A stretch of 64,000 bases of DNA, taken from the NCBI GenBank assembly GCA_043814055.1, contig JBDRKL010000010.1, forward strand, positions 1 through 64,000, given 5' to 3'. The position numbers and the translations under genes were made by a program. The notes under the pieces are model-generated. The model was not told the DNA's origin and ran no database searches. It saw only the letters and a program-made list of their open reading frames with translations. Position 1 is the first letter of the stretch; every line of letters begins with the position of its first letter. Shown here in pieces: positions 2,588 through 20,758 of this stretch. Source of the DNA: an archaeon (GTDB lineage Archaea; Undinarchaeota; Undinarchaeia; Undinarchaeales; JBDRKL01).

Positions 2588-5500
2588 ATGGATTCAAAAA
2601 AACAACCAGGTTTCAAAATTTTGTTAGCGTTTGGTATCATCATGGTTTCTATGATGCTGATTCCAACTGTTGCCGCTCTGGATAATCTTCCAGCGGTAAC
2701 TCCGATGGTTCTTGATGGCTACGTAACCAAAGATGGGAGTACTGCTGTCTCTGACAACACCTCAGTACTAGCCTATGAAACAGAGGATACTACTCACAAT
2801 AATAGTGTTCTCACTCAATTAGGCGTTGGTTACTTCTCAGCAACCCTAGATCAGGATGAACTTGCTGCAGGCAGCAACATCACGGTCTATGCTAACAACA
2901 CCACGCACTACGGTACCAACACCACAGCATGGAACGAAGGCGCATCTCAAGTAATAAATGTTACAATGAATCTAGCATTGCCCGATGAAACAGATCCAAC
3001 AGTCAATGCAATGTCACCTGGTAATTCTACTGAAGGGAACAGTGAGAACTGGACAACTAGCTACACTGTAGATTTCCAATACAATACTTCTGATTATTAT
3101 ACTGTCAGTTCATGTGAGCTCGTGATAAATGACTCAGTTATGAACACAAGCGGCTCAATAACTGAGGACACCCCTCAGAATCTCACCTACAACTTTGTCT
3201 ACCAGAACAATTCAAAAGCCTATTCTTGGTATGTCAACTGCACAGACAATTCTAGTAATGAGGGGCAGAGCACTGTTTATTACTTCAATCTCGAAGTTCC
3301 AAACGCAGCCCCAATTCTCAGCGCCGCAGTGATGGACTACACAAACGAAACAGGCATACCGTCAAATTCAACTTACCCAACATTCACGAACCAAACCGTT
3401 CTGTTCAACGGCTCTGCAACAGATGCTGACAACGCAATCTGGTACATGATAGTCTGCAACACTACTGCGCTGAATGAATCTACCAATTTGACTTGCAACG
3501 AAACCTCATACTGCAACGGCAGTGTGGTTTCTACAGGCGCAGCATCAACCTGCACTCTTGCGCTTGACACTACCTACACAGCTGAAAACTACACATGGGC
3601 TGCATTTGCCTGCGACGGCTCAAACTGCTCCTTGTTCAACAACACATACGCTCCATTCCACGTGAACCACATGCCATCTCCAAGCGTTGCTCCAACAGTT
3701 AATAATACCGACCCCAGAGTTGCGGACACATTGAACTGCACAGCAGGAACTTTTGCAGACTCTGACTCAGGCGACACTGAAACCACTGACTCCAGGGAAT
3801 TCAATTGGTACAACAACACAAGCGCGCTAAGTGGCCAGACCAACGCAACCCTAAGCCTGTCCGGAGCAGGCCTGCTCAAGGGCAACAACATAACCTGCGC
3901 AATCAAGGTATACGACAACCACGGGTTTGCGGCAGCAGACTACAACAACTCCTCAAACTATGCTGTGATAAACAACACAGCGCCAAGCGTATCTGCAATA
4001 AGCATAAACGGCGCCGCTACAAGTGTGGTCTACAGCGAAGACCTGACCTGCACAGCCACAGCAACCGACGCTGATACTGCGGACACGATCCAGTACAACT
4101 TCACATGGTACCTGAATGACACAGTGTTCAACGTAAGCACTGGTTACTCAGCTAACAATTATACCATAATGCCCAGCGACAACACCACAATAAACGAGAC
4201 TTGGAACTGCAGCGTGATAATCAAAGATGATTCTGATGCCACAGACACTCTGGCCTCAAGCAACGTAACCATAGTGAACGCAACGGTTTACAACGCGTCA
4301 TTAACCGCCAACGCAAGTGCAACAACCGTTGCCCAGAGCACAACCGCGTCATACACTGTAAATCTCACAAACAGTGGAAATCAGATAGACAACTACACGG
4401 TAACCTTGACAAATACAAACAGCGCAGACTCTGCAACAATAAACGGCAGCTCCAGTCAAAATGTCACCGACTTGGATGCAGGCGGAGTAGTGCAGTTCGT
4501 AGTGAATGTTTCAGACGCAACTGTGGGTGAATACAACGTTACCTTAACTGCAGTATCTGCAGGAGGGGTGACCAACGGTAGCGACAGCAACGCTACCCAA
4601 GTCCTCACAACAACCGTGGTCGACCTAACCAACCCAACTGTTTCAGGAATAAGCTGCTCGCCAAACCCAGCAACAATGGAAAGCGGCTTAGTTACTTGTA
4701 CTGCAACAGTGGCTGATAACATTGCCATAAGCGCAGTTTCAGCCAACATAACCCACCCAGGCAGCTCGGTCACAGAGCAGTCCGGCACAGTAGGCGGTTC
4801 AGTTACCTTCTCAAACCTGAATGAGTCAGGTATTTACACAGTAAAATACATTGTGAACGATACTGCTGGCAATAATAACACTACTGAAACCACGACATTC
4901 AACGTGAGCTACGGAACAGCAACACCAACCATAACTGTAACTCCAAACTCAACACCTGCGTACGGCTCCTGGTTCTTCGTGAACGCGACCATAGCTGCAA
5001 CAATCGGCGACCTTTACGAGTGCAACGCGACAGTTTACTCAAGCAACGAGGCGCTTGCTAATACCAGCACGGTGCACACACTTGGCGGCGGCAACGCAAC
5101 TAACGGCACATCAATAACCAACACAACCTGGAACTTCACTATGGCAAACTCAACAGGAACTGTGACAATAACTGTCAACACGACCTGCGTGAACGGAACT
5201 GCAAGCACTGATGCTGAAAATGTTGTAGTGACTGACTATGTTGCGCCTATTGTAACCGCAATCTCACCGAACAACACGACCATAAACATGAGCGTTGCAA
5301 CGTTCTCCTACAACGTGACGGACATATCAACCATAGCAAGCTGTGAGCTGATATTGAACAACAGCGTTGCCCTGACCGATACCACTATCACAAAGGACAC
5401 CACGCAGTACTTCTACAAGACTGAGCTTGTTGATGGTGCCTACAACTGGAGCATAAACTGTACTGACAATTCAACCAACTCTGTAGAAGGCGCGTCCGCA

Positions 5501-11934: not shown

Positions 11935-14535
11935 ATGGCTTCAGACCCAAAGTTGGTGCAGTATGTCCGGGATCAGCTCACAGCTGGTTACATGCTTTCT
12001 GCAATAAAGGAAGAGCTCCTGATTTCTGGCTACTCGCCTAGAACTGTCCAAGACGTTATCTTAGAAGTGCACGGTGCAAATATCCCTTCTGCCGCTTCCG
12101 CAGGGTCAATCTCTTTGCCTCAAATACCTTTTGCGCCGCTTCATCCGCCAAGGGTCTCTGAACTAAAGCAGGGTCCGCCCAGGCCAAGCAATGTTCCGAA
12201 ATTTGCCGCGGCTGGGCTTCTGGTTATTATTTTTGTTGCAGTCGCATATGGTTTTGGCTTGTTCCCTTCCGGCGGCTCCACAGTGAGTCTCGGCGAGCTT
12301 GAGATTGGGGAAAGCGTGGAATTCACTGTTGACGGCGACGCCCACTCGCTTGAGCTGGAGGATGTTGGCGACGATTATATTGATGTCTTGGTGAGCTCAG
12401 AGCCCCAGCGATTCCGAATACTGGTTGGGGAAACTAGGGCTGTTGATTTGGACGGAGACGATGTTGATGATATCACTATAACCTTGAACTCAATAGAAGA
12501 CGGCAAACCTGACGTAGACCTGAAGAAGATCCCAAAATCCAGTAGCGGTCAGGGTGACAGCGGCTCTGGTTCTGGGAGTGATTTTGGCGGTTCATATGAA
12601 ACAGATTGCATATGCTCTGAAATCGAAAGCCCTGACGGCAAAATAATGTGCGAGGCACTGCTTAAAAACGATCAGGATATCTGCAAGCAAATAGATGTGC
12701 TGCACGATGATGCCCAGGATGAGGGTTGGTGGGACTACGAGGACAACTACGAGTACTGCTACGACAACTTTGGAATACTCGCAAAAGAAGCAGCAGTTGA
12801 GCAGAACGATGTTAACGTCTGCCATACATTCTACAACGATTATAGGTGCGAGCTTGCCAAAGGGTATGAAACTAAGCAAATCTGCAGGTATATGGAGAAA
12901 AATCTGGATTGCATAGAAAAATTGGCAATCATTAACAAAGATCCTGCAATCTGTGATCAAATAATAACCAATAAATCCGACGGGGGTCTATATTACAAGC
13001 AGAAGTGCTATACTAAGGCATATTATGCAATAATCAACAGTGGCGACAAAAGCCTTTGCTCCAGGCTTGAGGGGAGAAAGCCAGATATATTGCAATCAAA
13101 CGAGGATCCGGTTGAAAACTGCATGGGGAAAGACCCCAGCAACTGCCTAGGAGACTGCCAGTTTTACATGGCACAGGATATCAACACGTGCAGGGAAATG
13201 AAAGATAGCTACGAGAAAGACCTCTGCATTGTTGAACACGCAACCGACATTTCTCAGTGTGATGAAATTCCTAACGAGATGAGGGCAGGAAGCGTTACTA
13301 AATGTGTCTTGAATACTGCCAAGGATGTTGATGCGTGCTTTAACAAACTTCAGGGTATGCACCCGGAATTGCCTGACGCTTATTTTGAAATGCTGTGCAA
13401 TGCCCATGTGGGCACAAATACAAACAATCTTGGGCTATGCAAGGACGCTACTGAAGTTGACGCAGCTGATTTGGTTGAAAACACTAACCTCTTCGACAGC
13501 GAGGATGACATACTTGACTATGTAACCTGGGAATGCTATATGCCGATACTGCGCGAAAAACTTTCTGATTACGCGTCTGAATGCCAAGATTACACAGCAG
13601 TGCCTGATAAATCTGATGAGGATTCTGGCGATGATTCCAGCTGCACACCTGACTGGAGCTGCAGCTCGTGGAATACCTGCAGCAGTGAAGGCATTCAAAT
13701 GCGCTACTGCCGCGACCTCCATTTCTGCAACACTACGGAAGGGATGCCTGCTATACAGAGGGAATGCGAGCTGGGCGGGGGGTGTACCCCTAGTTGGGAC
13801 TGCAGCTCCTGGGGTGAGTGCAGCAATTCACGTAAAACAAGGACCTGCACTGACACAAACAACTGCGACGTTAATACCTCTAAGCCCTTTACAACAAAGT
13901 ATTGCGTGCAGGACTGCACTCCTGACTGGAACTGTAGCTCGTGGGGCGCCTGCAATGGGGGCTTCCAAAACAGATATTGTTACGACGTAAATAAATGTGC
14001 CACAAATGACGGGGCGCCTGAGACAAGGCAGTCTTGTGCGTCTGAGGATAATAATGAGAATTCAAACTGCACCCCGCTCTGGGATTGCCAGAAATGGCTG
14101 TCTTGCACCAACGGGGTTCAATCAAGGAACTGCTTTGACTGGAATTATTGTGGCACAAACGCGGGGAAGCCGGACACAAGCAGATCCTGTGATAATGATG
14201 CTCCTGTAACTGAAAACAAGCCCTGTTCTGACAATGGCGCCTGCAACGCTCTGGGCTGGTTCTGCAATAGTCCAGCTGGTGGCGATTTTATGGAAGGCAA
14301 TTGCCTGAGATACTCCCAGCTGGAATCTGATTTTATGCGCTGTGACCAAGATTTGCTGGAGCAACAACAGAATGCCTGCCCATACCCTTGCGACCACTGC
14401 AAAGCCGGAAAAATGCATTGCACATATATGAGTGATGGTGAAGGTGGTATGATAAATCTTTGCAGGGAATGCAGTACAAACAAAGAGTGTGACATGGGAT
14501 ATGAATGCCACTCCATGATGTGCGTGCCGCAGTAA
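11935..14535 (+). CDS. Membrane-anchored Cys-rich extracellular protein with thrombospondin-type-1-like repeats
   Basis: Cytoplasmic N-terminal helix bundle, one TM, Cys-spaced helical repeats, then four CTPxWxCxxWxxC...RxCxDxxxC repeats. Confidence 0.8.
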   Translation: MASDPKLVQYVRDQLTAGYMLSAIKEELLISGYSPRTVQDVILEVHGANIPSAASAGSISLPQIPFAPLHPPRVSELKQGPPRPSNVPKFAAAGLLVIIFVAVAYGFGLFPSGGSTVSLGELEIGESVEFTVDGDAHSLELEDVGDDYIDVLVSSEPQRFRILVGETRAVDLDGDDVDDITITLNSIEDGKPDVDLKKIPKSSSGQGDSGSGSGSDFGGSYETDCICSEIESPDGKIMCEALLKNDQDICKQIDVLHDDAQDEGWWDYEDNYEYCYDNFGILAKEAAVEQNDVNVCHTFYNDYRCELAKGYETKQICRYMEKNLDCIEKLAIINKDPAICDQIITNKSDGGLYYKQKCYTKAYYAIINSGDKSLCSRLEGRKPDILQSNEDPVENCMGKDPSNCLGDCQFYMAQDINTCREMKDSYEKDLCIVEHATDISQCDEIPNEMRAGSVTKCVLNTAKDVDACFNKLQGMHPELPDAYFEMLCNAHVGTNTNNLGLCKDATEVDAADLVENTNLFDSEDDILDYVTWECYMPILREKLSDYASECQDYTAVPDKSDEDSGDDSSCTPDWSCSSWNTCSSEGIQMRYCRDLHFCNTTEGMPAIQRECELGGGCTPSWDCSSWGECSNSRKTRTCTDTNNCDVNTSKPFTTKYCVQDCTPDWNCSSWGACNGGFQNRYCYDVNKCATNDGAPETRQSCASEDNNENSNCTPLWDCQKWLSCTNGVQSRNCFDWNYCGTNAGKPDTSRSCDNDAPVTENKPCSDNGACNALGWFCNSPAGGDFMEGNCLRYSQLESDFMRCDQDLLEQQQNACPYPCDHCKAGKMHCTYMSDGEGGMINLCRECSTNKECDMGYECHSMMCVPQ

Positions 14536-15277: not shown

Positions 15278-15734
15278 GGGACTTTTCTCCGCGCGGTATA
15301 CCGAGGATGAAATAGCTGGGATTTATGCAGAGCTTAAAAAAGCCTGCCCCGTCGCCAAGCTCGTTGAAGGCCAGAATGAAAAGATCATACTCCTAAACGG
15401 CAAGAAGGCCCTTATTTTTACAAACCGGCTCGGCAAATTTGTGGCAAAAATCGATGAGTTTGCCCTTACCAAGGAAGAATACAGCGTGATTCAGGAATCT
15501 CTGGGCGCGCAGGGCATAACCATATCCGCGCCTGGCTCTGAACAGGGGAAACTGCCTATGGACAAATGGCTCCGTTATAGTGTTTTTGGCTTGTTTGGGT
15601 TCGGCTTGATAGTGTCTGCAGTGTTGATTGCAATCGCTGTGCAAAGCGGTGATGTTTCAAACCAGATTTGGATGTTCCCTTTTCTCGTTCTGGTTGGATT
15701 AATCTCTTTTAACTCTATGACAAAAACAGCTTAA
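15261..15734 (+). CDS. Hypothetical membrane protein, paralog-like to the previous ORF
   Basis: Shared pattern I-x-LNG...A...F...AK(L/I)D and two C-terminal TMs. Start probably ATG 15261 after GGGGG. Confidence 0.65.
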   Translation: MKSLLKGLFSARYTEDEIAGIYAELKKACPVAKLVEGQNEKIILLNGKKALIFTNRLGKFVAKIDEFALTKEEYSVIQESLGAQGITISAPGSEQGKLPMDKWLRYSVFGLFGFGLIVSAVLIAIAVQSGDVSNQIWMFPFLVLVGLISFNSMTKTA

Positions 15735-17200
15735 TTGTTGATTCTCCACCGCGCCCCATCTTTCCCATCTTCCAGAATTATTCCAAGCTTTTCAAGCTTT
15801 TTGCGAATCTCATCGCTCTTTCCATAATCTTTCTCCCTGCGCGCGGTTTCTCTCAAGTCAATCAGCGCTTTCATATTCTCTTTAAAACTCTTCTTTTTAA
15901 CATCAAATTGCCTGGCGAGCTCAAGAACCGCGTGCTCGGTGTCTTCGCTGACCTCGTTCTTCTTCAGAATCTTAAAAATTGAGTCAAGCTCTTCAAGCGT
16001 TTCAAGGCCTGCCTTCAGCGTTGCCTTTGATGCTCCGCCCTCTGCATTCCCACCTTCCATCTGCTTATTTAAAATTTTGCTCAGGTCAAATAGCTTGGAC
16101 ATAGCTATTGAGGTGTTGAAATCGTCATCCATCGCGGCTTTGAACTCTTTCTTCACTTTCTCAAATTCTTTTAAGACTTTTTCATCAGCTTTTCCAGCCT
16201 TTGCTTTCTCAAGCGCCTGCCTCAGATTATCATAAGTGTTCTGCAGTTTTGACAGGCTCACAGCTGCCTGCTCAAGGTAAACATCCGCAAAGTCAATCGG
16301 CGAGCGGTAGTGAGTTGAAATCAAAAAGAATCTGATGGTTTTAGCGTCATATCGCTTGAGCAGCTCGCGGATTGTTGAGAAATTCTTGAGCGACTTGCTC
16401 ATCTTGGCCTTGTTCACAGTGATGAAACCATTATGCAGCCAATATTTCACGAATTTCTTCCCTGTTGCGCACTCTGCCTGCGCTATCTCGTTGCTGTGGT
16501 GCGGAAATATCAAATCCTGCCCACCGCCGTGTATATCAAACGTCTCTCCGAGGTACTTTGAGCTCATTGCTGAGCATTCTATGTGCCAACCTGGTCTCCC
16601 CTTACCCCAAGGTGAATCCCAGCTAATCTCCCCTTCTTTAGCCCGCTTCCAGAGCGCGAAGTCCAGGGGTTCGTCCTTCAGCGGGCTTGGTTCAATCCTT
16701 TTCCCAGCTTCCATCTCCTCAATCTTCATCCCTGAGAGCTTGCCGTAGTCTTTGAATTTGTTAACTGAGAAATAAACATCCCCGCCTGCTTCGTAGGCGT
16801 AGCCTTTCTCTATGAGCTTTTCAATGAGCTTAATCATCTCCCCAATGTGCTCGCTCGCTTTTGGATATTTGTCAGCTCGCTCTATGTCAAGAGAGTCCAT
16901 ATCCTTGAAATACTCTTCTGCGTATTTCTTTGAAAGCTCAAGCGGTGCAATTTTCTCTTCCTTTGCGCGGTTTATGATTTTGTCATCAACATCTGTGAGA
17001 TTTTGGATGTAAACAACCTTGAAGCCGCTGTATTCCAAATAGCGGTGAATAACATCAAACGCGACATAAGCGCGGGCGTGCCCTAGGTGCGAAAGGTCAT
17101 AAACCGTTGGTCCGCAGACATACATCCAAACCTGCCCTGGTTTAACTGGCTTGAAAGCTTCCTTCTTTCTGCTCAGGGTGTTGTAGAGATTTAAGGTCAT
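15731..17200 (-). CDS. cysS: Cysteine--tRNA ligase
   Basis: MYVCGPTVYD, HLGH (HIGH), PGWHIECSAM and KMSKS. Start is ATG 17200 (ATGA overlap with the toxin stop) or 17206. Confidence 0.97.
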   Translation of the reverse strand: MTLNLYNTLSRKKEAFKPVKPGQVWMYVCGPTVYDLSHLGHARAYVAFDVIHRYLEYSGFKVVYIQNLTDVDDKIINRAKEEKIAPLELSKKYAEEYFKDMDSLDIERADKYPKASEHIGEMIKLIEKLIEKGYAYEAGGDVYFSVNKFKDYGKLSGMKIEEMEAGKRIEPSPLKDEPLDFALWKRAKEGEISWDSPWGKGRPGWHIECSAMSSKYLGETFDIHGGGQDLIFPHHSNEIAQAECATGKKFVKYWLHNGFITVNKAKMSKSLKNFSTIRELLKRYDAKTIRFFLISTHYRSPIDFADVYLEQAAVSLSKLQNTYDNLRQALEKAKAGKADEKVLKEFEKVKKEFKAAMDDDFNTSIAMSKLFDLSKILNKQMEGGNAEGGASKATLKAGLETLEELDSIFKILKKNEVSEDTEHAVLELARQFDVKKKSFKENMKALIDLRETARREKDYGKSDEIRKKLEKLGIILEDGKDGARWRINN

Positions 17201-17475
17201 AGCCATTCATATCCTTTGCCGCGGTGGAATATCTTTGTTATCATTACTGTGCTATTTTCTACCATGTATAATATTCTATAATTTCCAACTCTTAACCTAT
17301 ATAAGTCCTCTCCCTTCTTAACGCCCTTGAGCATTTTGATGTCAGTGCCCGACCTGCTTAGGAAGGGGTCTTTTTGCAGCTGCTCAGTTCCTTTTTTTAT
17401 GCGCTGACCTGTCTCATAGTCAAGCCCTGTTATAAACTTCACAGCAGTGCTGCTTATGTTGACTTTGTAGGCCAT
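17197..17475 (-). CDS. relE: RelE/ParE-family type II toxin
   Basis: YRLRVGNYRILY and KIFHRGKGYE RelE signatures. Confidence 0.88.
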   Translation of the reverse strand: MAYKVNISSTAVKFITGLDYETGQRIKKGTEQLQKDPFLSRSGTDIKMLKGVKKGEDLYRLRVGNYRILYMVENSTVMITKIFHRGKGYEWL

Positions 17476-17663
17476 TTCACGTCGCTCAGCGGCACAAATT
17501 TGTCGTCTCTAAGTACTTTGTAGTGTTCTTCAACCAGTGATTCATATTCCAAGGCCATCATCATTTTTTTAATGATGTCATCATATGTCTCGTCCTTTGT
17601 GCCAAACTTCTTGAGCTCGTCACGCGTTTCTTTTTCTATTGCGATTGTGGTCAATTGTTCCAT
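17454..17663 (-). CDS. Putative antitoxin, ribbon-helix-helix-like
   Basis: TTIAIEKETRDELKKFG..ETYDDII. Small, acidic, overlaps the toxin start; SD GAGGTG. Confidence 0.75.
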   Translation of the reverse strand: MEQLTTIAIEKETRDELKKFGTKDETYDDIIKKMMMALEYESLVEEHYKVLRDDKFVPLSDVKWPTKST

Positions 17664-17721
17664 TATACACCTCTATTATGTTTGATTATATGTTATTATA
17701 ATGATATATAAATGTTATGTT

Positions 17722-18604
17722 TCACTTAAACAGCTCAGTGCTTAAATATTTAGCCCCTCCATCCGGCAGAAGCGTTGCAACCACGTTGCTTTCTTTCTTA
17801 TTTGCTTCTTTCAACGCAATATACATCGCAGCTCCTGAGCTCATCCCTGCAAAGATGCCTTTTTCTTTCGCAAGTAGCTGGGCTGTTCTCACTGCATCAG
17901 CTGAATAGACATCCACAATTTCATTAACAAAGCCCGGGTCAAAGATGCTCGGCGTGAACTTCTCCTGCATGTTGCGCAGTCCCTGTATCGGCTCTCCGCG
18001 CGCAGGTTGGACTGCAATGAGCTTTACTTTTGGATTTACCTCCCTTAGTCGTTTCCCAATTCCCATTATGGTTCCTCCTGTCCCAATCCCGGCAACAAAT
18101 ACATCAATCTTCGGCAACTGCTCAACTAATTCTTTCCCAGTTGTTTCATAATGCGCCCGCACGCTCGCCTCATTATTGAACTGGTCCGGCATGAAGTATT
18201 TGGAATCTTTTGCGAGTTCCTGCGCAACCTCAATCGCCCCCTCAGTCCCCAGCTCGCCGGGTGTTAAAATCAGCTCTGCGCCGAGCGCCTTGAGCCATTT
18301 GCGCCGCTCAACACTTACATTCTCTGGCATTACAAAAAGTGTTTTAAAACCCCTTTCAGCTGCGAGCATTGCAAGACCTATTCCTGTATTGCCTGATGTC
18401 GCTTCAAGAATTATTTTGTCTCCTTGAAATCCTTCCAAGAAATATTTCGCAACCCTATCTTTCACAGAGCCGCCGGGGTTGAAGAACTCGAGCTTTGCGT
18501 ATACATTATCTATCTGCAATAGTGGTGTATTTCCAATAAGCTCTGCTACATTAGCCTTAACAAAGGCCACCACCAACTTTTACAGCATTTAGTCTCATTT
18601 TCAT
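17722..18604 (-). CDS. cysM: PLP-dependent cysteine synthase (CysK/CysM family), predicted to be expressed through a +1 frameshift at 18565-18560
   Basis: IGNTPL, NPGGSVKDR (PLP Lys), ATSGNTG, GTGGT and KYLST. The catalytic frame (17722-18576) has no ATG before the PLP Lys. The SD-led ATG at 18604 is in another frame. The product family is certain; the 5' boundary is inferred. Confidence 0.85.
18557..18604 (-). CDS. 0-frame short ORF MKMRLNAVKVGGGLC* overlapping the cysteine synthase 5' end
   Basis: AAGGAGGTTT-ATG AAA ATG AGA CTA AAT GCT GTA AAA GTT GGT GGT GGC CTT TGT TAA. Confidence 0.75.
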   Translation of the reverse strand: MKMRLNAVKVGGGLC

Positions 18605-18620
18605 AAACCTCCTTAAAATT

Positions 18621-18675
18621 TGGAGCAGGGAGACAAAACACAGACATTGCTTTTTGTTACTGTGTTTGCCTCTGC
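18621..18675 (-). ncRNA. tRNA-Cys-like armless hairpin, copy 2
   Basis: GCAGAGGCAAACACAGUAACAAAAAGCAAUGUCUGUGUUUUGUCUCCCUGCUCCA; 55 nt, GCA in the loop, UCCA end. Confidence 0.65.
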
Positions 18676-18694
18676 TCCGCTGACCACTTTATTA

Positions 18695-18749
18695 TGGAGC
18701 AGGAGACAACGCACAGACCTTGCAATTGGTTACTGTGCGAGCCTCCTGC
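18695..18749 (-). ncRNA. tRNA-Cys-like armless hairpin, copy 1
   Basis: GCAGGAGGCUCGCACAGUAACCAAUUGCAAGGUCUGUGCGUUGUCUCCUGCUCCA; acceptor stem identical to the neighbouring tRNA-Cys, UCCA end. Confidence 0.7.
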
Positions 18750-18772
18750 TTTTGCTGTGCCTTTTATGAGAA

Positions 18773-18846
18773 AGCAGGAGATGGGATTTGAACCCATATA
18801 AATGCGCTCTGCAGGCGCACGCATGACCGAATTTTGCTACTCCTGC
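18773..18846 (-). tRNA. tRNA-Cys(GCA)
   Basis: Acceptor GCAGGAG/CUCCUGC with U73, D arm GCA/UGC with GG, anticodon arm UGCGC-CUGCAGA-GCGCA, T arm AUGGG-UUCAAAU-CCCAU. CCA is not encoded. Confidence 0.92.
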
Positions 18847-18849
18847 GTG

Positions 18850-19025
18850 CTCCGCCGAATTGCGGAGGATAATTGCGCTGCACAAGTTTGTGAAGATACA
18901 GCGCTACCGGGTCAGTTGCCCGGCATCTCAGCTCATAGTTCTGAAATCACTAACAATTAATTGCTGAGAACTATAGAGGTTAACCTATGCTTGCCTTACT
19001 GGCTACAGCAACAACCGCACAGGTT
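18850..19025 (-). promoter_or_regulatory. Structured leader with five consecutive hairpins upstream of tRNA-Cys
   Basis: Stems found by eye at 19025-18982, 18978-18932, 18924-18906, 18904-18875 and 18867-18850. Confidence 0.6.
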
Positions 19026-19034
19026 TCTCTTCAT
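18996..19034 (-). CDS. Cys-rich leader peptide MKRNLCGCCCSQ
   Basis: ATG AAG AGA AAC CTG TGC GGT TGT TGC TGT AGC CAG TAA; the ATG is 29 nt downstream of the first T of TTTATA (19063-19058). Confidence 0.75.
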   Translation of the reverse strand: MKRNLCGCCCSQ

Positions 19035-19056
19035 TAGATTTCAAATGTACAGCACC

Positions 19057-19066
19057 CTATAAATAT
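19057..19066. promoter_or_regulatory. Candidate bidirectional TATA box
   Basis: CTATAAATAT lies about 29-30 nt from both ATG 19034 (-) and ATG 19088 (+). Confidence 0.55.
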
Positions 19067-19087
19067 CTGATGGTTCTAAGCTACAAC

Positions 19088-19276
19088 ATGCCCTGCGACA
19101 ACCAAGAAAACGCTGACTGCCCGTGCACATACTCCTGCGAAAAGCACGGCAAGTGCTGTGAGTGCCTGAAATATCACTTGGGTAGAAACGAGCTTCCAGC
19201 CTGCTGTTTCTCATCTGAAACGGAGAAAACTTATGACCGCTCCTTCCAAAAATTCGCAGAAGACAAAGGGCTCTAA
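19088..19276 (+). CDS. Small Cys-rich protein, DUF6485-like
   Basis: CPCTYSCEKHGKCCECLKYH...ELPACCF...EKTYDRS, recognised from memory of the family. Start 19088 preferred over 19070 on TATA spacing. Confidence 0.75.
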   Translation: MPCDNQENADCPCTYSCEKHGKCCECLKYHLGRNELPACCFSSETEKTYDRSFQKFAEDKGL

Positions 19277-19907
19277 ACCCAAAGTTATCTGCCTGTTCTC
19301 ATCCGGCATAGACAGCCCTGTAGCCGCGCACTTATTGCTTGAGCAGGGCATTGAAGTCATTCCTGTGTTCTGCTACAATTACCCGTATATGGACGAGGAA
19401 GAAATCCAGAATGTCAAGCTTCTCCTGCACACGCTCTCAAAGCTCCACAAGGTCAAGCTCACGGCATATATGATCAAGCACGGCCCGTCCCTGATGGAGT
19501 TCAGCGAGCACTGCGAGCCAAAGGCGATGTGCATTCTTTGCAAGCGGATGATGCTTCGCACTGCTGAGAAAATAGCTAAAAAAGAGAAAGCAATCGCAAT
19601 TATGACCGGTGAAAATCTCGGGCAGGTTGCGTCGCAAACTCTTGATAATTTAATTGTAAACCACGCAGCTGTAAAGCTTCCTGTGCTAACTCCGCTTCTC
19701 GGATTTGACAAGGAGGAGATTGTGCAGATTGCGAAGAAAATCAAGACCTACAACCACTCAATCGCGCCGACAAGCGGCTGCAGCGCAGTTCCAAGGTATC
19801 CTTTGACACACGCCCGGATTGAGCAAATTCAGGAAGAAGAGCGCAATGTGAATGTTAAAAAGCTGGTTGACGCGTCGTTCAAGAGCATCAAGGCGGTGAA
19901 ATATTGA
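19233..19907 (+). CDS. thiI: ThiI-family tRNA sulfurtransferase, PP-loop catalytic half
   Basis: SSGIDSPVAA, CILCKRMM, TGENLGQVASQTLDN, PLLGFDKEEI and a third Cys (GCSAVP). Confidence 0.88.
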   Translation: MTAPSKNSQKTKGSKPKVICLFSSGIDSPVAAHLLLEQGIEVIPVFCYNYPYMDEEEIQNVKLLLHTLSKLHKVKLTAYMIKHGPSLMEFSEHCEPKAMCILCKRMMLRTAEKIAKKEKAIAIMTGENLGQVASQTLDNLIVNHAAVKLPVLTPLLGFDKEEIVQIAKKIKTYNHSIAPTSGCSAVPRYPLTHARIEQIQEEERNVNVKKLVDASFKSIKAVKY

Positions 19908-20758
19908 AAAAGAAATCTGCTCCTAAACCAGAGCTGAAGCCAAGCACAATCCTTGTTCGCTTCGGTGAAATCGCCCTGAAGAGCCCAAGAGTCCGCCGCA
20001 AGTTCGCCAGCCGCTTGGTGGGTAATATGAGGCGAATGCTTCCTGGACATCCTAGGATAAAAAAGGAATGGAGCCGAGTATTTGTTGAAGCCGGCGACCC
20101 TGAAGTGCTCTCTGCGCTGACTAAAATATTCGGCATAGTCTCGGTTTCGCCTGCCTATGTGTGCGCGCCAACAATGCCTGAGATACAGAAGCTCGCGCTC
20201 AAATTGGCAAAAGAGCATATCAAAAAGACAGATTCATTTGCAATCCGCGCCCGCCGCGCAGGAACGCACAAGTTCACAAGCCAGGATATTGGAATAAAAA
20301 TTGGGGATGCAGTGCGCAAAGCATCAGGCGCCAAGGTCAATTTGGGAAAGCCAACAAAAGAGCTCTTCATAGAGGCGCGGCAGGACCACGCGTATGTGTT
20401 CATTGAGTCAATTAAGGCACCGGGCGGTCTGCCCTACGGCGTTGAAGGCAAAGTGCTTGGGCTTTACGAAGGCTCAGCTGAGTTCAAATTAGCAACTTAC
20501 CTGCTCGCGAAGCGCGGATGCGAGATTGAACTGCTCGGCAATGCTCCAGCTGATTTCATGAAAGAGTGGCTCGGCGGGGTCAAAGTGCATTCAAAAATGC
20601 CAAATGATGACAGATTAAAAGCAGTATACACCGCGGACACAATTAAAGACATTAAAAAGTTCGCAGCGTTTGACAAGAAATATGAGTTAGAAGTTTTCCG
20701 CCCACTGTTGGGTTTAAATGAATCTGCAATCAAGAAAGCTTTAGGAATACTCCACTAA
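19904..20758 (+). CDS. ThiI N-terminal/THUMP protein with degenerate PP-loop domain
   Basis: ILVRFGEIALKS, SFAIRARRAG and GPG-like APGGLPYGVEGK. SGGxDS is replaced by YEGSAE. TTG start overlaps the upstream stop. Confidence 0.8.
   Translation: MKKKSAPKPELKPSTILVRFGEIALKSPRVRRKFASRLVGNMRRMLPGHPRIKKEWSRVFVEAGDPEVLSALTKIFGIVSVSPAYVCAPTMPEIQKLALKLAKEHIKKTDSFAIRARRAGTHKFTSQDIGIKIGDAVRKASGAKVNLGKPTKELFIEARQDHAYVFIESIKAPGGLPYGVEGKVLGLYEGSAEFKLATYLLAKRGCEIELLGNAPADFMKEWLGGVKVHSKMPNDDRLKAVYTADTIKDIKKFAAFDKKYELEVFRPLLGLNESAIKKALGILH

Follow-up and report, generated by a model that had tools for sequence, protein, structure and literature searches.

The window analysed here is a stretch of 64,000 nucleotides (nt; JBDRKL010000010.1, positions 1 to 64,000) from the genome of an undinarchaeal archaeon, a metagenome-assembled draft (MAG) of roughly 1 Mb that is 82% complete. 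Genome and contig are designated G000 and G000:C10, other genomes, contigs and loci being numbered likewise with G, C and L. The minus strand of the window carries, one after another, a TATA-like box, a leader short open reading frame (sORF) that ends in Cys codons, a series of hairpins, tRNA-Cys, two further hairpins, a cysteine synthase gene with a putative +1 shift site at its start, a toxin-antitoxin (TA) pair and cysS. An earlier note on this DNA had listed these parts, in this order, as a cysteine-sensing operon, and every one of them is found in the sequence. The comparison set comprised 13 species-level genomes in the order and 17 in the phylum. Leader, tRNA-Cys, an apparently frameshift-gated cysteine synthase and cysS form a conserved core that is real and can hardly be due to chance; it can plausibly be read as a sensor, worked by the ribosome, of the supply of charged tRNA-Cys.

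The leader sORF (18996-19034; all positions in the window refer to the minus strand unless marked otherwise) encodes the peptide MKRNLCGCCCSQ in 12 codons, with Cys at four of the final seven sense codons. The TATA-like box TTTATA (19058-19063) lies 23 nt 5' of its ATG, an arrangement that implies a leaderless transcript, with a predicted start at the ATG. Among the 13 genomes of the order tRNA-Cys was detected in seven, and in all seven an ATG-led open reading frame (ORF) of 9-14 codons, ending in a run of Cys codons, is present 79-220 nt 5' of the tRNA gene; the leader described in the earlier note is thus conserved in its relatives. The six other orthologous leaders read MMNTDKICCCCCC, MKSKTFDCCCCCQ, MEPKTIECCCCCC, MNQIRLCCCCC, MKLNLCCCC and MDQKKKKSKCGCCS, each followed by a stop codon. 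All seven carry a C-terminal Cys tract, with three to six Cys codons among the final seven codons of the leader. Their N-terminal codons and lengths diverge, and TGT and TGC replace one another synonymously among the orthologues; the ATG, the in-frame Cys run and a stop no more than two codons beyond it (0-2) are retained in every case. A TATA-like box 20-25 nt 5' of the leader ATG is found at six of the seven loci. Downstream of tRNA-Cys, on the same strand, cysS is present at all seven and cysK at three. In G011 the tRNA and the ATG of cysK are a mere 22 nt apart, too close for a separate promoter, and the two must lie on one transcript. The tRNA-Cys of G013, a genome from another order, has no comparable ORF within the 330 nt inspected. 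A separate observation concerns the tRNA-Cys of G005 (L008, G005:C3, about 1284-1546), which contains a 179-nt intron after position 37 and was not called by ARAGORN.

The leader RNA is strongly structured. The 481 nt from 19040 to 18560 are predicted to fold at -175.5 kcal/mol, against -137.2 +/- 5.8 kcal/mol for shuffled sequences (z = -6.6, tRNA included), with about five hairpins in a structured stretch of 150 nt 5' of tRNA-Cys. In the first of these, H1 (18982-19025), the segment AACCUGUGC within the sORF pairs with GCAUAGGUU past the stop, enclosing the Cys run and the stop codon. H1 holds the codon run and stop in all seven Cys leaders, with z values of -1.5 to -4.3 relative to shuffles, and in five of the seven no more than 5% of shuffled sequences do as well. 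Its 3' arm is a box immediately after the stop, CAUAGG in six of the leaders and CATCGG in G005, and a U-rich tract follows, with T-runs of at least four in five of the seven. The second hairpin, H2 (18926-18969), is built from CUCAGC...GCUGAG together with AGUUCU/AGAACU and contains a conserved 14-nt box, TTGTTAGTGATTTC, of which G010 has an exact copy. A hairpin equivalent to H2 is predicted in all seven orthologues, the sequences of the arms differing.

Cys leaders are also found elsewhere. From species-representative genomes and metagenomes 163 cysteine-synthase loci were gathered, including three from the order, and the removal of 16 that were duplicates or had less than 200 nt upstream left 147 for scoring. 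An ATG-initiated ORF of up to 30 codons with at least three consecutive Cys codons was present within 300 nt upstream at 27 of these 147 loci, compared with none of 147 on the reverse strand and four of 2940 shuffled sequences. The leader of the window itself lies 479 nt upstream of cysK and so falls outside the 27. As labelled in their records, the 27 loci belong to Woesearchaeota/Nanoarchaeota, Thermoplasmatota and a few candidate-phyla bacteria; at two of them, L026 and L118, tRNA-Cys again sits between leader and cysK. Within the phylum, G014 has the leader MTAKVCCC, with its stop, ahead of an ATG-started cysteine synthase. A different overlap is seen on the metagenome contig L134, where a 19-codon leader, MGERLCSCEKCCCKECCCC plus stop, with nine Cys residues lies at -79 to -22 from the enzyme match and overlaps the extended open frame of the cysteine synthase, which is in +1 and without an ATG.

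Nor is the pattern confined to cysteine. Elsewhere in G000, outside the window, the leaderless sORF MSNSSVVVV (G000:C10:75016-75045, minus strand; L218:2716-2745) ends with its stop 42 nt before valS (NF009687, 1048.8 bits), with a TATA box 23 nt upstream and a GC hairpin and U tract downstream. A third such sORF, MNTDSEIIIIR plus stop (G000:C12:21951-21986, minus strand; L219:3252-3287), is found 86 nt before ileS (TIGR00392, 935.6 bits). The TATA boxes of both have the same spacing as that of the Cys leader. A strict scan of G000, for intergenic ORFs of 5-25 codons with a TATA box at -36 to -16 and at least three identical residues among the final six, returned 18 sORFs, three of which are the cognate Cys, Val and Ile cases. 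An Ile-rich sORF is present ahead of ileS in ten of the 13 genomes of the order, and a Val-rich one ahead of valS in four of the 13; in the rest of the phylum the corresponding figures are nought of four for each. The Ile leaders share the layout of the Cys leaders, a hairpin over the run and stop and then a second hairpin, and all are followed by the conserved hairpin GUGCUCC-UUUUUCAAAAUUUC-GGGGCAC. In G009 and G001 the ATG of ileS lies just 13-14 nt past the second hairpin, which places leader and ileS on one transcript. There may also be a Phe leader: the sORF MSTHRTYFVFSGF (G000:C4:147592-147633, minus strand), with three Phe among its final six residues, is found 209 nt upstream of a GlyRS-like gene, with PheRS alpha- and beta-like genes next in line (identities assigned by eye).

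The following mechanism would account for the Cys leaders. A leaderless mRNA would open with the ORF of 9-14 codons, its terminal Cys codons lying inside H1. When Cys-tRNA(Cys) is scarce, a ribosome would stall in the Cys run and keep H1 open, and transcript reaching tRNA-Cys, cysteine synthase and cysS would go on being made, or would survive. With ample Cys-tRNA, the ORF would be completed and vacated, H1 would form and output would be attenuated. Since the next gene is a tRNA, masking of a ribosome-binding site cannot be the controlled step; the likeliest candidates are termination at the U-rich tract found after H1 in most relatives, or the fate of the transcript. Archaeal RNA polymerase terminates at oligo-U and a hairpin is unnecessary. 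The anatomy of the leaders, their conservation and the pattern of cognate amino acids are observed, and from these we infer the stalling and the attenuation step. On these grounds the poly-Cys leader is very probably a sensor of Cys-tRNA.

Alternatively, the Cys-rich ORF might go untranslated and belong to a structured 5' leader of the tRNA, or might encode a functional micropeptide, for instance with a metal-binding or redox role. The strong structure of the region, the nucleotide-level conservation of the CATAGG and TAGTGA boxes and the presence of a separate gene for a small Cys-rich protein, adjoining divergently, would all suit such a view. It does not, however, explain why the integrity of the ORF is kept in seven of seven genomes despite diverging N-terminal codons and lengths and synonymous TGT/TGC changes, nor why ORFs with Cys runs are enriched before the cysteine synthases of other phyla. 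The matching Ile and Val sORFs before ileS and valS are more telling still: cognate leaders for Cys, Val and Ile are explained by a sensor of cognate codons and not by a Cys-rich micropeptide or a mere RNA leader. We therefore regard a non-sensory role as improbable and retain the leader as a probable sensor.

The small Cys-rich protein just mentioned, of 68 residues and belonging to DUF6485, is encoded at 19070-19276 on the plus strand; its start and the leader ATG, on opposite strands, are 36 nt apart and share an AT-rich promoter region. Beyond it, at 19233-20758 on the plus strand and likewise divergent from the Cys leader, ThiI is encoded by two overlapping genes, split and with the domains in permuted order: the gene for the PP-loop domain (19233-19907) comes first and that for the ferredoxin-like/THUMP domain (19904-20758) second. 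The ThiI PP-loop gene neighbours the Cys locus in G002 and G006 also.

The tRNA-Cys(GCA) gene of the window (18773-18846; Rfam, 60.2 bits) is the sole tRNA-Cys among the 40 tRNAs that ARAGORN finds in G000. It is flanked by hairpins that the earlier note had listed. The two downstream of it (18693-18755 and 18620-18682) had been called tRNA-Cys-like, and might in principle be bound by CysRS as mimics of tRNA-Cys, giving feedback at the protein level in the manner of the thrS operator. What speaks for this is that the outer stem of the first copy is exactly the 7-bp acceptor stem of the adjoining tRNA-Cys together with U73, and that both copies have GCA in the apical loop. Both copies are, however, members of a dispersed hairpin family, here termed R1, which has 30 matches in seven of the 17 genomes of the phylum, at one to ten copies each and often in tandem, and no match in Rfam; the second copy, too, is matched by the family model. 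Compensatory changes at 15 of the 20 pairs of the seed alignment support the R1 structure by covariation, and over the 30 matches 86.6% of cells are paired, the figure being 68.4% for shuffles and 27-38% for slid controls. Only six of the 30 have GCA as the loop triplet. The stem core GGAGGC/GUCUCC is a feature of the family as a whole, as is a conserved apical loop, CAGUAACC...GGUCUG, and R1 copies lie in either orientation beside unrelated genes (rpl37ae/rpoP, V-ATPase); G000 has further copies at C6:47158-47220 and C10:117053-117117. Between tRNA-Cys and cysK at the orthologous loci of G002 and G011 the R1 hairpins are missing, and in the window they precede cysK and not cysS. We consider a role as synthetase-binding mimics highly improbable. 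The 9-nt direct repeat TCTCCTGCT, which on the minus strand is shared by the 3' end of the tRNA (18773-18781) and the 3' arm of the first R1 copy (18694-18702), may be the trace of an insertion at the tRNA end.

The five hairpins upstream of the tRNA that the earlier note had described are present in the fold, but they include dispersed copies that are found elsewhere. Beyond H1 and H2, the three at 18925-18905, 18906-18874 and 18873-18850 are lineage-specific and do not occur in the other leaders, G005 having an unrelated insertion. Copies of the upstream hairpins lie at G000:C2:5056-5088 (97%), in G010:C16 and in G002:C5, and within 18850-18906 the hairpins GCGCUGUA.CUUCACAAACUUGUGCAGCGC and CCUCCGCAAUUYGGCGGAG recur intergenically (G000:C2:5056-5088, L012, L014), once by a tRNA. 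A search of 18300-19300 with Rfam cmscan at E values up to 10 returned the tRNA and three sub-threshold chance matches, and no T-box. The hairpins flanking the tRNA do not belong to the circuit. The four separate cysteine signals previously claimed are accordingly reduced: two conserved signals and the tRNA itself stand, while the mimics fall away.

The second conserved signal is at the start of the cysteine synthase gene. A Shine-Dalgarno (SD) sequence, AAGGAGG (18608-18614), complementary to the 3' end of the genome's own 16S rRNA (...GAUCACCUCCU), serves an ATG at 18604, and the frame-0 ORF that this ATG opens, MKMRLNAVKVGGGLC plus stop (18557-18604, 15 codons), is the proposed true start of the gene. 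It ends in the putative shift site CUU UGU UAA (18557-18565), comprising a P-site Leu codon, an A-site Cys codon and a stop, and 3 nt 5' of the shift codon is a G-rich, anti-SD-like hexamer, GGUGGU (18569-18574). The enzyme itself, which is CysK/CysM-like (Pfam PALP, 220.5 bits), follows in the +1 frame (17722-18561).

This layout recurs in relatives. Cysteine synthase genes are present in three of the 13 genomes of the order and seven of the 17 of the phylum; four of the seven (G000, G002, G011, G013), including all three in the order, have a short frame-0 ORF with ATG, a hexamer, 3 nt, (C/G)UU, UGY, a stop after no more than one codon (0-1), and the enzyme in +1. G013 belongs to a different order of the phylum, its enzyme being 45% identical. 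The slip site proposed in the earlier note is therefore conserved; that note had named loss of leader or slip site among relatives as what would count against its reading, and the conservation of both favours it. The four sites read CUU UGU UAA (G000), CUU UGC CGC UAA (G002), CUU UGC UAG (G011) and GUU UGU UAA (G013), that is, CUU-U in three and GUU-U in one. The frame-0 ATG has its own initiation signal in each case, an SD 7-9 nt away in G000, G002 and G011 and a TATA box at leaderless distance in G013. The hexamers 3 nt 5' of the shift codon, GGUGGU, AGUGGU, AGGGAU and GGUGAU in the same order of genomes, all look like complements of the 3' end of the genome's 16S rRNA, and for three of the four (G013 not among them) the duplex with the 16S tail is predicted at -9.7 (G000), -5.9 (G002) and -8.8 kcal/mol (G011); about 4% of random genomic 18-mers reach -8 kcal/mol with that tail. 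The enzyme frame lacks an ATG in all four and is closed one to eight codons 5' of the shift site, in G013 by a TAG one codon before it. The Cys codon ends in either U or C, a difference that is synonymous in frame 0 but turns Val into Ala in +1. Of the phylum's other three genes, two (G014, G015) have ATG starts and one (G016) a GTG/TTG start; most homologues elsewhere use an ordinary ATG situated 3-5 codons upstream of the conserved N-terminus.

A break of this kind could in principle be an assembly error or the mark of a decaying pseudogene, and the source genome is indeed an incomplete draft. Yet four separate assemblies have the same break at the same position with the same motif, and downstream of each break is an intact ORF of about 280-300 codons with the motifs of the enzyme, namely the pyridoxal-phosphate lysine (SVKDR), TSGNTG and GIGTGGT. 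In addition, contigs from an RNA library, of at least 99% identity, cover 18389-18520. An artefact or a pseudogene is barely credible in these circumstances.

Instead, the layout is consistent with a second layer of sensing. The cysteine synthase would initiate at the SD-led frame-0 ATG and, with Cys-tRNA available at CUU-UGU, Cys would be added and UAA would terminate translation, leaving a 15-residue peptide and no enzyme. At an empty Cys codon the peptidyl-tRNA-Leu would slip from CUU to UUU, aided by the anti-SD-like hexamer 3 nt upstream, and the enzyme would then be made in the +1 frame, so that its output would rise when cysteine is short. Genes for tRNA-Leu(GAG) and tRNA-Leu(UAG) are both present in G000. 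We infer the slip itself and its dependence on cysteine; that a +1 frameshift is used we regard as likely. The read-through translation predicts the trans-frame junction ...VGGGL|VK...; in producing it, a blanket rule of CTTT = L also shifts at the CTT-T of residue 89, which is an artefact of the rule.

Further cases were sought more widely. Metagenomes scanned for closer relatives of the enzyme gave a best identity of 55% and no additional CUU-UGY case, and the sole extra case from the scan of the genome collection, L030, is the same sequence as G011 over the compared stretch and was counted as G011. L023, from a bacterial MAG and 58% identical, has an ordinary start layout. A related arrangement is seen in two Woesearchaeota/Nanoarchaeota MAGs, L032 and L038, in which, just upstream of position 3001, a cysteine synthase without an in-frame ATG is overlapped by an upstream ORF (uORF) with SD and ATG (MKQGEYRCKRT and MKVGYRCKRA, each with its stop), the enzyme being in +1 of the uORF and a poly-Cys leader lying farther upstream. 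Neither uORF (...UAU CGG UGC...) contains an NUU-U site for slippage and re-pairing, and TTG/GTG starts are available.

Between cysteine synthase and cysS lie an antitoxin-like gene (DUF7557, 29.6 bits, above cut-off; 17454-17663) and a gene for a ParE/RelE-family toxin (PF05016, 35.4 bits, above cut-off; 17197-17475), which overlap by 22 nt and constitute a type II (ParE/RelE) TA pair; against RelE_StbE the toxin scores 23.7 bits, below the cut-off of 27.9. A tblastn search found no counterpart of the pair at any of the six orthologous loci. Although the earlier note had made it part of the circuit, the pair occurs at this genome's locus only and has its own TATA-like box, and to judge from this comparison it is a local insertion standing outside the circuit. 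The start of cysS (15731-17206; TIGR00435, 573 bits, cut-off 340) overlaps the end of the toxin gene. As regards RNA, one groundwater run holds 7% of the sampled words and yields two contigs, 17335-17585 and 18389-18520, leaving leader, shift site and tRNA junctions uncovered; such contigs cannot reveal starts, ends or strand. Elsewhere in the window, at 11935-14535 on the plus strand, a protein of 866 residues contains many Cys-rich repeat modules (CTPxWxCSSWxxC) and has a signal or membrane anchor.

Taken together, leader and frameshift would make up a two-layer, ribosome-read sensor of charged tRNA-Cys. Various observations weigh against this reading. With respect to the leader, a classical three-hairpin attenuator was considered and rejected: folds constrained by a ribosome on the Cys run or on the stop gave the same H2 and yielded no alternative pairings and no terminator-antiterminator switch. 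No T-run of four or more follows H1 in G000 and G011. With respect to a common transcript, TATA-like boxes, rich in A and T, occur in the interval between leader and gene at several loci, and in the window a strong TTTATATA, a TATA-like box, lies between cysK and the antitoxin gene, about 37 nt upstream of the latter. Such boxes, downstream of leaders and ahead of the TA pair and cysS, make separate promoters possible, and this TTTATATA, together with the overlap of toxin end and cysS start, means that cysS may be driven partly by the TA promoter. The single promoter envisaged in the earlier note does not hold as stated: the TATA-like box 5' of the leader is confirmed, but there is a second box before the antitoxin gene. 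The two RNA contigs lie inside the cysK and TA genes only and could reflect DNA carry-over, and the evidence for the mechanism is anatomy and conservation.

For the frameshift, the anti-SD-like element of G002 is weak (-5.9 kcal/mol, about 14% of random 18-mers reaching -6), and the four cases, coming from one phylum and being related, are not four independent events. Across the genome NTT-TGY dicodons are mildly rarer than expected (209 observed, 310 expected), an ambiguous result, and CTT-TGT itself is not under-represented (23 observed, 15 expected). The enzyme scores 318.8 bits against NCBIfam cysKM, below the cut-off of 344.15, so that the proper label is cysteine-synthase-like. Finally, the enzyme frame of G000 and of G002 contains a TTG or GTG 5-7 codons upstream of the conserved N-terminus, making internal initiation possible in these two genomes.

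This last point raises the possibility that there is no frameshift at all, the enzyme starting at TTG, GTG or a rarer codon within the short upstream ORF, which would then be an overlapping uORF that tunes or couples initiation. Homologues from other lineages (L032, L035, L038, L066) do start with GTG or TTG at a comparable place, and the uORFs of L032 and L038, which share the pattern MK.G.YRCKR. before the stop, overlap their enzymes with an SD and ATG and have no NUU-U site. Against this, G011 and G013 offer no ATG, GTG or TTG before the IGNTP motif, G013 having a mere eight open codons there (FVNSPLEL). Moreover, the strong SD is spaced for the frame-0 ATG and not for the TTG or GTG, the combination of (C/G)UU-UGY-stop and upstream hexamer is conserved in four of four, and a ribosome stalled at the Cys codon would cover an internal start rather than expose it. 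Internal initiation therefore seems unlikely, and a +1 shift at the Cys codon is the better account. With all of this in the balance, we judge it somewhat probable that leader sensor and frameshift are both at work. The wider proposal, of a lineage-wide amino-acid regulon read by the ribosome, in which Cys leaders serve tRNA-Cys and cysS, Ile leaders ileS and Val leaders valS, with a +1 gate on cysteine synthase that responds to Cys starvation, has in our estimation about an even chance of being correct.

Were these readings true, the leaders would be the first leader-peptide attenuators in Archaea. The shift site would be the first programmed +1 frameshift in a cellular gene of Archaea and the first natural frameshift of any organism to be signalled by amino-acid starvation at a sense codon. 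The locus suggests how feedback control could be exercised by the ribosome alone where the genome is of 1 Mb and has few regulators. Together with its relatives it supplies short, portable test sequences, in the form of a shift cassette of about 40 nt and a family of Cys, Ile and Val leaders. Gene callers would mis-start or split cysteine synthase genes of this kind and overlook the leader ORFs.

Archaea are not known to possess leader-peptide or T-box control of the kind with which bacteria adjust synthetases, tRNAs and biosynthesis to the supply of amino acids. Leader-peptide attenuation, as in trp, his and E. coli pheM-pheST, uses cognate codons to report the supply of charged tRNA, pheST being a synthetase operon. 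The archaeal leaders resemble these in placing cognate codons in a short leader ORF, ahead of a synthetase operon in the case of pheST; they differ in that no three-hairpin switch could be derived and in that the regulatory codons stand at the extreme end of the ORF. The thrS operator and the T-box serve the same end, the matching of synthetase and tRNA supply to need, whereas here the candidate mimics fail on conservation and the region has no Rfam match to a T-box.

Closer still are the leaderless polycysteine sORFs of mycobacteria, described as Cys-responsive attenuators (Ms5788A; Rv2334A before cysK1-cysE; the "Cys ribulon") in a preprint by Canestrari et al. (bioRxiv 10.1101/834739). Both are short ORFs, leaderless by prediction in the archaeal case, with a C-terminal Cys run ahead of genes of cysteine metabolism, and in both a stalled ribosome would keep the Cys tract from entering into an RNA duplex. 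The archaeal mechanism, in which a vacated Cys tract would let H1 form and a stalled ribosome would prevent it, was modelled on the mycobacterial one. The statement of the earlier note that no described archaeal system combining these parts is known should be qualified in view of these mycobacterial attenuators. In open-access text we found no archaeal counterpart of polycysteine leaders or of a programmed frameshift in cysteine synthase, only bacterial leader work, and leaders of this kind, not yet demonstrated in cellular archaeal genes, are the first that we can find for Archaea. The differences are that the mycobacterial sORFs belong to Actinobacteria, while in this archaeon the first downstream gene is a tRNA and an aminoacyl-tRNA synthetase follows; that in mycobacteria the partner of the Cys tract is the next gene's SD, while here the tract is enclosed by a hairpin with the post-stop box CAUAGG; and that the archaeal lineage also has Ile and Val versions, for ileS and valS.

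The +1 frameshift of prfB, the gene for release factor 2, takes place at CUU UGA C, 3 nt downstream of an SD-like element. The likeness to the cysteine synthase genes comprises a short frame-0 ORF that ends at or near a CUU-U slip site, a product wholly in +1 (four of four) and, as proposed here, an autoregulatory logic; a hexamer that may be the counterpart of the SD-like element also lies 3 nt upstream. Yet in prfB the A site holds a stop codon and release factor is sensed, whereas here it holds a sense Cys codon, UGY, with a stop no more than one codon later (0-1), and Cys-tRNA would be sensed; the host, moreover, is an archaeon, and one relative has GUU. A 2021 review of archaeal recoding (PMC8211752) gives a single demonstrated frameshift, the -1 event in fucA1, and no cellular +1 case, and a 2016 review of frameshifting (PMC5009743) reports no known hungry-codon frameshift giving a starvation-specific product. 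The latter also covers the +1 shift of Ty1 and ABP140 at CUU AGG C, a hungry rare codon. There, as proposed here, a P-site CUU slips while a slow sense codon waits in the A site; the slowness in Ty1 and ABP140 comes from a fixed, rare tRNA, whereas that of the archaeal Cys codon would vary with the supply of the amino acid.

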